A DNA stretch of 64,000 bases, taken from Escherichia coli. GTDB taxonomy: Bacteria; Pseudomonadota; Gammaproteobacteria; Enterobacterales; Enterobacteriaceae. The position numbers were made by a program, and so were the translations under genes. The notes beneath the pieces were generated by a model. That model was not told the DNA's origin, made no database searches, and was given only the letters and a program-made list of their open reading frames with translations. Positions 11,765 to 13,194 of this stretch are shown here, in pieces. The stretch is from assembly GCF_030013595.1 (NCBI RefSeq), contig NZ_CP122768.1; one strand, 5' to 3'. Each line of letters opens with the position of its first letter. Position 1 is the stretch's first letter.

Positions 11765-12778
11765 TTAAAATAGCATTTGAGTCAAATAGCCCATCAAGAT
11801 AGCCATACCTAAGATAACCGTCAGGAATGCAGCTATCATCGGCATTCTGAACATTGATTTAAGTAATATCACTTCCGTCAGGCTTGCTCCGGCACTGCCG
11901 ATGATTAATGCCATTAATGCTCCCAGCCCCATTCCTTTTGTCATCAGAACAGATGCCAGAGGGATAACCGCCTCTGCCCGGATATACAGCGGAATTCCGA
12001 CAACGGCGCTCAATGGGATGGCGAAGGGATTATCTGCCCCTGCATGAGCGGCAATCCACTCTGAGGGAATAAAGCCATAAATAAAAGAGCCTATTAATAC
12101 CCCTAACAAAAGATATGGCAGTACATCTTTAAACTGTTGCAACGCATCTTTGGTGGCTAGTTTTATGGGATTAATACTTACCACAGCTTTGGTACTGCAA
12201 CAGTTTACTACAGGTTTCTCAATGGCTTTAGCCGCTGGACTACAGCAACTCACTTTTATTGGCGTATATGTCGTCCCCGGCGAAGTTTTGGCTGGAGCAC
12301 AACAATTTGCTGATGAGCTTTTACTGGCAATGATATGACGTTCAAATCCCAGGGAATCCAGGATAATACTGGCAAGTACGGAGACGTCGGCGGCGATAAT
12401 CGCGTACAACAAGGTAACTTTCCAGCCAAAGGTCACCCACATTAACCCGACGATAATGGGATTAAGTAATGGGGAAACAAATAAAAAAGTGAGGGTCGGA
12501 CCGAACCCGGCTTTCGCTGACAACAATCCACGTAACATTGGGATTGTCGAGCAACTACAGAACGGGGTAACGGCTCCCAACAGAGCCGCCAGGAGATAGC
12601 CTCTCCCTTTTCTGGCCCCCATCATCTGCTGGATTTTATGGTCTGGCACCTTTTGTCTTATCAGGCTGACACCGGCACTAATCACTATAAACAGCAAAGA
12701 AAGCTCGACGGCGAGAAACACAAACATCTCTGCGGCATCTTGCAGCATCGCAAGCCAACTACTCATACGTAACCTCAT
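11765..12778 (-). CDS. ArsP-like (DUF318-type) permease with cysteine-rich cytoplasmic segment
   Basis: 337 aa polytopic membrane ORF with TPFCSCS motif and three CC pairs (NCCAP, VSCCSP, VNCCST) in a central loop. Confidence 0.6.
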   Translation of the reverse strand: MRLRMSSWLAMLQDAAEMFVFLAVELSLLFIVISAGVSLIRQKVPDHKIQQMMGARKGRGYLLAALLGAVTPFCSCSTIPMLRGLLSAKAGFGPTLTFLFVSPLLNPIIVGLMWVTFGWKVTLLYAIIAADVSVLASIILDSLGFERHIIASKSSSANCCAPAKTSPGTTYTPIKVSCCSPAAKAIEKPVVNCCSTKAVVSINPIKLATKDALQQFKDVLPYLLLGVLIGSFIYGFIPSEWIAAHAGADNPFAIPLSAVVGIPLYIRAEAVIPLASVLMTKGMGLGALMALIIGSAGASLTEVILLKSMFRMPMIAAFLTVILGMAILMGYLTQMLF

Positions 12779-12873
12779 TGAATAAATCTATATTTCCAGA
12801 ATAATCGAAATGAAATTCAGATCAAGATATTTCTGGTATTATCGAAATATCAACCAGACAAAGGGGGTGTCAT

Positions 12874-13194
12874 ATGCAGTTGGAAGAAGTTGCTAAAGCG
12901 CTGAAAGAGCTAGGTCACCCGACCCGTTTGTTCATATTCAAACACCTGGTCAAAGCGGGGGAACAAGGTTTGCCGGTCGGTGAGTTGCAAAAGCAGCTTG
13001 GGATACCCGGCTCTACACTCAGTCACCATATTTCAGCACTGGTATCGGTAGGGCTGGTCAAACAAAACCGTGAGAGTCGAACGCTGATGTGTGTTTCGCA
13101 ATACGCAATGCTGGAAGCGATAATTGAATTCTTACGCGAGGAGTGCTGCGTAAATAGCAAAACACATGGCGAAGGGGCCACGAAGAACAAATAA
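12874..13194 (+). CDS. ArsR/SmtB-family transcriptional regulator with C-terminal Cys pair
   Basis: 106 aa ORF with winged-HTH-like core (GELQKQLGIPGSTLSHHISALVSVGLV) and C-terminal EECC; divergent from the permease. Confidence 0.6.
   Translation: MQLEEVAKALKELGHPTRLFIFKHLVKAGEQGLPVGELQKQLGIPGSTLSHHISALVSVGLVKQNRESRTLMCVSQYAMLEAIIEFLREECCVNSKTHGEGATKNK

Follow-up and report, generated by a model that had tools for sequence, protein, structure and literature searches.

A divergent ArsP-family permease and SpArsR-type repressor beside arsRBC in Escherichia coli: a probable organoarsenical resistance unit that K-12 lacks

Next to the arsRBC operon of an Escherichia coli chromosome lie two further genes, coding for a membrane permease and a small regulator, that are absent from K-12. 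Which compound would such a pair deal with, in a cell already equipped with arsRBC, and did this strain acquire the pair or did K-12 lose it? We addressed these questions in the window, that is, the whole stretch of 64,000 nucleotides that was analysed, and by comparison with related genomes, plasmids and characterised proteins. No experiment on these E. coli proteins was found in the searchable literature.

Gene layout and ancestry of the pair

Reading of the open reading frames placed the two genes divergently between a yhiS-like gene and arsC, on either side of a 107-bp intergenic region. The ArsP-family permease gene occupies 11765..12766 on the minus strand (333 aa; open reading frame, Pfam family PF03773 and PGAP CDS in an identical strain), and the gene for an ArsR/SmtB repressor of the SpArsR type 12874..13194 on the plus strand (106 aa; open reading frame and profile matches). 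They are flanked by the yhiS-like open reading frame (10069-11184) on the permease side, and by arsC (13215-13640), arsB (13653-14963) and arsR (14997-15350) on the regulator side. The original prediction had described the same divergent arrangement of a permease and an ArsR-family regulator between yhiS and arsC. It had also stated that K-12 has no genes between these two, and this is indeed the case in DH1, where none lies between arsC and the yhiS pseudogene.

The permease open reading frame can be extended at most to 11765-12778 (minus strand, 337 aa), from an alternative upstream ATG at 12778. The ATG at 12766, giving 333 aa, is the likelier start, because a GAGG lies 7 nt upstream of it, because PGAP places the start there in the identical strain, and because orthologues align from this point. 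About 170 bp past the permease stop, a consensus scan matched a terminator-like hairpin (11570..11598, minus strand), made of an 11-pair stem followed by a T-rich tail. A GC-rich hairpin, AAGGGGGCATATCCCCCTT (13193..13211), is found between the convergent regulator gene and arsC, and could serve as a terminator in both directions. An Rfam scan of 11100-13300, at E values up to 0.1, gave zero matches, so that no known RNA family lies in the 580 bp that separate the yhiS-like gene from the permease gene.

The pair had been presented in the original prediction as inserted and strain-specific, and a synteny comparison with K-12 and O157 had been proposed. The pair was absent from both, but the way in which it is absent does not suit an insertion. 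Pairwise alignments showed that K-12, O157 and Nissle share one deletion, corresponding to 11529..13100, which removes the permease gene together with both candidate operators and the greater part of the regulator gene. All three keep a 62-bp remnant of the regulator gene (window 13101-13162), 84% identical, followed by a REP element. The terminator-like hairpin at 11570..11598 falls within the segment absent from K-12. Conversely, E. fergusonii carries the pair at the same site, as do 41% of complete E. coli genomes (2222 of 5426, a genome being counted when it keeps at least 80% of the queried segment, window 11200-13700), and the synonymous divergence of the pair matches that of the flanking arsRBC and gor genes. 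The borders of the pair are free of transposases, integrases and insertion-marking repeats. Together with the regulator remnant in genomes devoid of the pair, this rules out insertion by a mobile element. From the shared deletion with its remnant, the common site in E. fergusonii and the synonymous divergence in line with that of the flanks, we conclude on this sequence comparison that the pair is old, and that K-12 lost it rather than the source strain having gained it.

Such losses raise the question of whether the pair is a decaying, functionless leftover, intact here by chance. Large E. coli lineages have deleted it (K-12, O157, Nissle), IS elements break it in some genomes, and in the common E. 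coli allele a REP element stands in place of the regulator tail. However, both frames are intact, and dN/dS values of 0.03-0.15 in comparisons with E. fergusonii, B1-type E. coli and plasmid alleles (0.05-0.15 for the permease, 0.03-0.07 for the regulator) show that both genes evolve under purifying selection. Moreover, conservation extends to the sensor cysteines, the CxC motif and the two operator-like sites described below, and the 2222 genomes counted above retain 80% or more of the queried segment. We consider functionless decay highly improbable.

The permease and what its motif can tell

A match to the Pfam model PF03773 (ArsP_1) covers the full length of the permease (E 5.6e-53; residues 13-334, aligned to positions 3-293 of the 294 in the model), which bears out the earlier assignment of the protein to the ArsP/DUF318 type. 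Its hydropathy profile consists of about four hydrophobic segments, a 76-residue loop and about four more segments, the helix count being approximate, and this pattern fits the 4+4 helix description in PMC7176098. A sequence search against solved structures gave no match for the permease at E values up to 1. From Escherichia to Aeromonas, the membrane core hardly varies. The TPFCSCS motif (codons 12548..12568, minus strand; residues 67-73, with Cys70 and Cys72) is placed by hydropathy in the second hydrophobic segment. It is unchanged across 16 orthologues, and the form TPFC[ST]C was present in all 80 species-level relatives. The central hydrophilic loop (12134..12361, minus strand; residues about 136-211) carries Cys-Cys pairs at 155/156, 174/175 and 189/190. 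Both its length and its sequence are hypervariable between orthologues, the proteins ranging from 333 to 377 aa. Of these loops 41 could be parsed; each has at least one cysteine (median 3), and 22 have a CC pair.

TPFCSCS had been read in the original prediction as a hallmark of organoarsenical permeases. This use of the motif as a diagnostic was dropped, as the CSC core is common to SO_0444 Cu/Zn exporters and to SaoE, so that the motif leaves the substrate of the permease unfixed. These two families are other branches of PF03773, with the same fold family and the same core, and their regulators and neighbours differ from those of the E. coli pair. They raise the possibility that the permease is, like SO_0444, an exporter of a thiophilic metal (Cu, Zn, Cd, Hg or similar) under a metal-sensing ArsR/SmtB repressor, in which case its ars neighbours would be coincidental mobile cargo. 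The SO_0444 family (NF033936) is in fact the best NCBIfam match of the permease, a DUF318 gene of Shewanella loihica matters under zinc stress (10.1101/072470), loops rich in Cys-Cys are typical of soft-metal binding, and most marine relatives have no ars neighbours. However, the match to SO_0444 lies far below the cut-off, of which it reaches a third (109.4 bits vs 300), and that to SaoE is also far below its own (NF040736, 87.1 bits vs 325). Together with the regulator, operator and neighbourhood data given below, this makes a metal exporter improbable.

Campylobacter ArsP is, to our knowledge, the sole member of the family with transport assays. In C. jejuni it is encoded in an arsP-arsR-arsC-acr3 operon, not in a divergent pair, and Chen et al. 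reportedly found in 2015 that both cysteines of its motif are needed for transport. The E. coli permease can be likened to this methylarsenite and roxarsone(III) efflux protein by family name (ArsP_1, TC 2.A.119) and by motif, both having the C(S/T)C pair, and the two are alike in their linkage to ars genes. The C(S/T)C motif is conserved among the ArsP homologues surveyed in PMC4435449, where a cluster of ArsP proteins from ars operons has 'tPF' before it, like the E. coli permease. A protein search of the plasmid collection for a copy of Campylobacter ArsP found none.

The regulator, its cysteines and its candidate operators

The regulator scored above the cut-off of the NCBIfam ArsR/SmtB metalloregulator model (NF033788, 61.6 bits vs 55) and matched HTH_20 (E 2.9e-14) and HTH_5 (E 1.6e-06), in agreement with its initial description as a small winged-helix protein of the ArsR family. 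With SpArsR it shares 58% identity over 92 residues (E 4e-41; the SpArsR sequence was rebuilt from the biosensor construct of a supplement, extracted from PDF with a few bases dropped, and was cross-checked against the near-identical S. profunda gene), compared to 32% for AfArsR and 29% for the chromosomal ArsR of the same strain. SpArsR (Sput200_1227) and arsP (Sput200_1226) of Shewanella putrefaciens 200 form a divergent two-gene unit, as in E. coli, and the two regulators have the same cysteine set, namely a CC pair where alpha5 ends, a single cysteine upstream of it, and no third C-terminal cysteine. Placed in E. coli, SpArsR and the arsP promoter respond to 0.1-1 µM MMAs(III) and barely to 50 µM As(III) (PMC12124457), and SpArsR has been described as a two-cysteine sensor responding to MAs(III), not As(III) (PMC11868830; PMC13236881). 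That the closest characterised relative of the regulator is an organoarsenical sensor speaks against a metal sensor, and so does the sequence of its helix alpha5, from which the His/Asp/Glu metal ligands are missing.

Among solved structures, the best match was AfArsR of Acidithiobacillus ferrooxidans (PDB 6J05, E 3.2e-10, gapless alignment), a type 2 As(III) sensor. Cys91 and Cys92 of the regulator (codons 13144..13149, plus strand), a vicinal pair that closes helix alpha5 and is predicted to bind the arsenical, align exactly with AfArsR Cys95 and Cys96, and are the counterpart of SpArsR Cys101/102. They are unchanged in 7 orthologues, and a C-terminal CC was found in 56 of 56 related regulators. 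The third As(III) ligand of AfArsR, Cys102, is replaced by His98 in the E. coli regulator, and the tail is cysteine-free here and in 6 orthologues. A further conserved cysteine, Cys73 (codon 13090..13092, plus strand), lies in the wing strand; it corresponds to SpArsR Cys83 and is present in 55 of the 56 relatives. The CxCxxC arsenite site of type 1 ArsR proteins (R773 and E. coli chromosomal) was not found in the alpha3 region of the regulator, where the sequence LPVGELQ is devoid of cysteine.

Does the regulator sense inorganic arsenic instead? The pair would then be a second arsenite/antimonite system, with an As(III)/Sb(III)-sensing regulator, and a permease acting as a backup or higher-capacity exporter beside ArsB. 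The pair directly adjoins arsRBC, the regulator belongs to the lineage of AfArsR, which senses As(III), and 25 of the 56 related regulators have, as in AfArsR, an extra cysteine 2-9 residues past the CC pair. In a few distant relatives, the permease gene comes after arsD-arsA, in one direction. In addition, the conserved Cys73 could in principle act across the dimer as the third ligand of an arsenite site with three sulfurs, and we therefore rejected, as too strong, the argument that a two-cysteine site is by itself proof of MAs(III) selectivity. The argument for selectivity comes rather from SpArsR, which has the same three cysteines, including the equivalent of Cys73, and is reported to respond barely to 50 µM As(III). 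Enterobacterial regulators are without the third C-terminal cysteine, a second arsenite pump would be of little gain where ArsB is present, and adjacency to arsH, described in the next section, points to methylated species. A second inorganic arsenic system is thus unlikely.

Two operator-like sites of 20 bp, each an exact match to the family motif, were found between the two genes. Site 1 (12792..12811), ATTTCGATTATTCTGGAAAT on the minus strand, overlaps a candidate -10 of the regulator promoter. Site 2 (12829..12848), ATTTCGATAATACCAGAAAT on the minus strand, lies between a candidate -35 and -10 of the permease promoter. A promoter scan was at chance level, with 4 matches vs 3.4 expected. 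The motif itself is far from chance: the 64 kb window contains two matches, both in the 107-bp intergenic region, for 0.01 expected, and each of the 46 related divergent intergenic regions contains it. It also occurs in the SpArsR-controlled arsP promoter of S. putrefaciens 200, part of which is identical to a 21-base stretch of the E. coli region at site 2, GATATTTCTGGTATTATCGAA (promoter sequence from the supplement of PMC12124457). A candidate operator shared with an arsP promoter under MAs(III) control argues again against a metal-responsive pair. The two sites are spaced by 37 bp here, vs about 49 bp or more in most relatives.

Arsenic neighbours and a model for the pair

Besides the present locus, the pair is next to ars genes in at least four further, independent settings, and arsH often comes immediately after the regulator gene. 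In E. coli and E. fergusonii it is beside arsRBC, in a Citrobacter prophage beside the prophage-borne arsRDABC, and in a Salmonella island arsH comes directly downstream of the regulator gene. On R64 and 168 plasmids, the order is regulator-arsH-sigma-arsD-arsA, and on a Staphylococcus plasmid a 36%-identical pair is found beside arsDA and arsRB. ArsH oxidises MAs(III) (PMC6205960, review). That ars genes adjoin the pair in five or more independent contexts, one of them a Gram-positive plasmid, is difficult to reconcile with the coincidental cargo that a metal exporter would imply. Among the 80 species-level relatives, ars genes within 10 kb were rare in a census made without Acr3 and thioredoxin-type ArsC seeds (ArsA/ArsD 5, ArsB 3, ArsC 2, ArsH 1). 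The Aeromonas pair stands alone, and Shewanella-type pairs mostly do so as well, whereas the E. coli pair is welded to arsRBC. In the SpArsR-type locus of Shewanella profunda, near-identical to that of S. putrefaciens 200, the partner permease is about 50% identical to the E. coli permease and has a similar CC-rich loop, although loop length and sequence differ between E. coli and Shewanella-type permeases.

The R64-type plasmid pair is much closer, with about 84% nucleotide identity, a regulator 92% identical in amino acids, and the same divergent layout and operators. The plasmid copies have already been named arsP and arsR (PMC6449608; PMC9484752). The two forms differ downstream of the regulator gene, which is followed on plasmids by arsH, a sigma-70-like gene and arsD-arsA, and on the chromosome by the hairpin facing arsC. 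Plasmid permeases also have longer loops (proteins of 345-377 aa) than the chromosomal one of 333 aa. In many plasmids, the cluster is cut by IS26 just past the regulator gene.

Four observations, taken together, suggest that the pair forms an inducible resistance unit, complete in itself, against trivalent organoarsenicals, that is, methylarsenite and probably reduced aromatics such as trivalent roxarsone: the regulator is 58% identical to SpArsR, which is selective for MAs(III), it has the same two-cysteine site, the operator motif is common to both systems, and arsH and other ars genes are recurrent neighbours of the pair. We give this reading a probability of about 70%. The possibility of resistance to methylated or aromatic arsenicals, raised in the original prediction, is therefore the reading best supported by the sequence evidence. 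As far as gene and protein comparisons go, the pair is the Escherichia counterpart of SpArsR-arsP of S. putrefaciens 200, and a known kind of system.

The unit would work as follows. A dimer of the 106-aa ArsR-family protein would bind the two 20-bp sites and repress both the permease gene and its own gene, presumably by promoter occlusion. Methylarsenite, the likely inducer, needs just two sulfur ligands; its binding to Cys91-Cys92 would take the repressor off the DNA. The derepressed ArsP-family permease would then export the arsenical, its putative substrate, via the membrane-embedded Cys70-x-Cys72, and the central loop rich in cysteine pairs may assist substrate capture. The neighbouring arsRBC operon deals with inorganic arsenite and arsenate, so that the two units would be complementary.

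The loop invites a further speculation, which we regard as doubtful. It might be a built-in substrate-capturing arm, like an ArsD-type chaperone fused into the pump, and its variation might tune which trivalent arsenicals or soft metalloids are exported. Retention or loss of the module would then be a fitness determinant, separating E. coli lineages that live near arsenic-methylating anaerobes or organoarsenical feed additives from those that lost it, K-12, O157 and B2 among them.

Methylarsenite is far more toxic than arsenite, and arises from anaerobes and from the reduction of arsenical herbicides and feed additives. As this type of system is already known, the present assignment is of value for annotation and ecology, not as a new concept. 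If it is correct, a dedicated inducible defence against methylarsenite would be present in about four in ten sequenced E. coli and in E. fergusonii, and would have been lost in K-12, which matters for reading K-12 arsenic tolerance data and would affect the choice of host strain for arsenic biosensors. The same defence would be carried on hundreds of resistance plasmids from poultry, pigs and people, and this would bear on the co-selection of resistance plasmids by arsenical feed additives.

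The permease and its two-cysteine regulator

The original prediction of a transporter and regulator beside the arsenic operon was right in every particular as an observation: a PF03773 permease carrying TPFCSCS lies divergent from an ArsR/SmtB regulator, and the two adjoin arsC, arsB and arsR. The longest open reading frame for the permease covers 11765-12778 on the minus strand. Translation more probably begins with the ATG at position 12766, which has a GAGG 7 bases upstream, is the start in the NCBI annotation of an identical strain, and is the point from which all orthologues align. 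The resulting 333 aa protein is matched over its entire length by Pfam PF03773 (ArsP_1, E 5.6e-53), with TPFCSCS at residues 67-73. Hydropathy indicated two sets of about four hydrophobic segments each, separated by a hydrophilic loop of 76 residues with three Cys-Cys pairs. When orthologues were aligned, the membrane core was near-invariant from Escherichia to Aeromonas, and the central loop varied in length and sequence (proteins of 333-377 aa), being cysteine-rich throughout. Only sub-threshold NCBIfam matches were found for the permease, to SO_0444 Cu/Zn exporters (109, cut-off 300) and to SaoE (87, cut-off 325). The CSC core is also present in these two families (10.1101/2022.07.06.499078), so that TPFCSCS alone, initially relied upon as an ArsP-type marker, is not diagnostic.

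The regulator gene (12874-13194, plus strand, 106 aa) is separated by 107 bp from the permease gene and is followed by a GC-rich hairpin, then by arsC, arsB and arsR in convergent orientation. Its product matched NF033788 (61.6 bits, cut-off 55) as well as HTH_20 and HTH_5. The top match among solved structures was AfArsR, the arsenite-sensing regulator of Acidithiobacillus ferrooxidans (6J05, E 3.2e-10), over 91 residues without a gap. Cys91-Cys92 fall exactly on Cys95-Cys96 of AfArsR, which binds arsenite through these two and a third cysteine, Cys102, replaced here by His98. In seven orthologues (E. coli, E. fergusonii, Salmonella, Citrobacter, Aeromonas and two plasmids), Cys73, Cys91 and Cys92 were invariant, and the variable tail was devoid of Cys in all seven.

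This two-cysteine state is exactly the one published for SpArsR of Shewanella putrefaciens 200, an AfArsR-like protein with the vicinal pair Cys101/102 only, which responds to methylarsenite but not to arsenite (PMC11868830; PMC13236881). In an independent study, a sensor in E. coli that combined SpArsR (Sput200_1227) with the promoter of its neighbour arsP (Sput200_1226) responded strongly to 0.1-1 uM MMAs(III), and reached about 9% of its maximum with 50 uM As(III) (PMC12124457). We rebuilt the SpArsR sequence from the construct printed in the supplement of PMC12124457, of which a few bases were dropped in text extraction; it is 105 aa long and near-identical to the regulator of a Shewanella profunda locus, whose permease shares 50% identity with the E. 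coli permease over its full length, with similar SCC loop motifs. Identity of the E. coli regulator was 58% to rebuilt SpArsR (E 4e-41), 32% to AfArsR and 29% to the strain's own arsenite-sensing ArsR. SpArsR also has an equivalent of Cys73 (Cys83), hence Cys73 alone does not confer arsenite sensing. That the pair is a second arsenite system is unlikely, given the missing third cysteine and the behaviour of SpArsR. The best explanation, to which we give a probability of about 0.7, is that the pair is a predicted methylarsenite-inducible efflux unit complementing arsRBC. Both genes are under purifying selection (dN/dS 0.03-0.15) and are therefore not debris.

Operator-like sites and conservation among relatives

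The 20-bp motif ATTTCGAT-N-AT-N-C-Y-R-GAAAT occurs twice between the two genes (12792-12811 and 12829-12848) and nowhere else in the 64 kb window, for a chance expectation of 0.01. A 21-base stretch inside one site, GATATTTCTGGTATTATCGAA, is identical in the printed S. putrefaciens arsP promoter. A looser core, ATTTC-N10-GAAAT with at most 2 substitutions, was present, mostly twice, in 46 of 46 intergenic regions (a raw count, uncorrected for chance): those of the window, of an R64-type plasmid and of the S. putrefaciens promoter as printed, and 43 from the divergent regulator-permease pairs of the genome scan. The operator-like sites coincide in part with candidate -10 and -35 elements. As matches in the promoter scan were no commoner than chance, we only infer that repression would proceed by promoter occlusion at the two candidate operators.

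Scanning a single genome of each species gave 80 permease relatives (47-70% identity), chiefly from Vibrio, Shewanella, Photobacterium and their allies, all 80 with TPFC[ST]C. The regulator gene adjoined the permease in 56, and was divergent and upstream in 46 of these. All 56 regulators had the C-terminal ...ECC; an extra Cys 2-9 residues further on, as in AfArsR, was found in 25, and was absent in 31, as in SpArsR. In a few distant relatives (L021, L022, L046 and other loci), arsD-arsA preceded the permease in the same direction, and the regulators were of the three- or five-cysteine AfArsR-like form; this arrangement is consistent with an earlier proposal, cited in PMC6205960, that ArsP and the ArsA ATPase can act together. 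On plasmid p1512eTc1_HI1_ST15 (5563-7023 of the extracted locus), tet(B)-tetR(B) adjoined a paralogous permease of 49% identity and, divergent from it, a small HTH gene, in an apparent Tn10-type module; a second lineage of the pair thus travels with tetracycline resistance.

Arsenic-linked settings

The link of the pair to arsenic recurs in independent settings. The order in E. fergusonii is gor-dinQ-arsRBC-regulator-permease, then treF. In a Salmonella island, arsH comes after arsRDABC and immediately 3' of the regulator gene, from which the permease gene diverges, and on R64 and 168 plasmids the permease is divergent from regulator-arsH-sigma-arsD-arsA; ArsH oxidises methylarsenite (review PMC6205960). 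A 36%-identical pair lies beside arsD-arsA and arsR-arsB on a Staphylococcus saprophyticus plasmid. In total, the pair was found on 622 plasmids, with a nucleotide identity of about 84%, and IS26 often cuts just 3' of the regulator. In Citrobacter (L008-L010, 3230-9092), a complete arsRDABC with regulator and permease is cargo of a lambdoid prophage, so that arsenic resistance could move by lysogeny; this cargo sits between the replication genes and the DinI/RusA region.

Just a few of the 80 marine relatives had ars genes within 10 kb, and in Aeromonas the pair occurs by itself. The pair is therefore a self-sufficient unit that has joined ars clusters chiefly in enterics and on mobile DNA. 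An export of soft metals is improbable in view of the regulator's relatives, the operator motif common to the S. putrefaciens arsP promoter, and the repeated adjacency to ars genes and arsH.

Plasmid pCombat13F7-3 (L005/L007, 11286-11831) has a sigma-70-like gene, 'sigL', between arsH and arsD, as on R64-type plasmids. A similar sigma gene adjoins a second PF03773 permease, of 333 aa, in a Salmonella island (L017, 1-899), and sigma-like neighbours were also seen in 9-10 of the 80 permease relatives.

Ancestry of the pair

At least 80% of window 11200-13700 was held at this position by 2222 of 5426 complete E. coli genomes (about 41%), some with chu genes, such as the window's strain, and some without. 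The alignment of K-12 (DH1) stops at about 11524-11528 and resumes at 13195; its gap retains 62 bp from the 3' end of the regulator gene, 84% identical to 13101-13162 and followed by a REP element. This remnant recurs in O157 and Nissle 1917, with essentially the same end points, and Nissle 1917 additionally retains 23 bp of the permease gene. In the common pair-bearing E. coli allele (L101, 7960-8100), REP comes directly after the ...CCVNSK codons and takes the place of about 8 C-terminal residues of the regulator (98 versus 106 aa); in the pair-less K-12, O157 and Nissle equivalents, this same element comes after the 62-bp remnant. In the window and in E. fergusonii, REP is absent and the regulator has its longer tail. 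At synonymous sites, the pair has diverged by 0.15-0.23 from a B1-type E. coli and by 0.24-0.30 from E. fergusonii; the values for the flanking arsR, arsB, arsC and gor are 0.10-0.21 and 0.13-0.30, respectively. Shared remnants and end points, together with this flank-like divergence, point to loss rather than to the insertion initially proposed: the pair has long belonged to the ars locus of Escherichia and was inherited vertically, and a single deletion removed it from lineages including K-12.

Nissle 1917 (L100, about 3600-4450) has kept arsC, directly followed by dinQ, and lacks arsR and arsB too; the locus was therefore eroded from both sides in that B2 strain. The yhiS-like gene (10069-11184, minus strand; a longer, 407-aa CDS according to PGAP in the identical strain) had no NCBIfam match; it is intact in the window, an IS5-split pseudogene in K-12, frameshifted in a bovine B1-type strain and truncated in Nissle. 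The 580 bp between it and the permease gene (11185-11764) contain a strong hairpin (11570-11598), no Rfam match and no convincing gene, only an 83-aa ORF (11404-11655). At 7376-8404 and upstream, chuS (plus chuA in the matching genome) directly adjoins dctR, so the strain has the haem-uptake island. Only 2 complete genomes were at least 99% identical at this locus, most being at 95-97%, and gor synonymous divergence from K-12 was about 0.11, which suggests a divergent E. coli lineage.

The kind of system is already known, from the SpArsR/arsP pair and from ArsP. The chromosomal E. coli genes are annotated merely as "permease" and "ArsR/SmtB family transcription factor", and no study of them was found in the literature searched. 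The gains are modest: the annotation is improved, the direction of evolution is set right, and the variable cysteine-rich loop yields an idea that can be tested.
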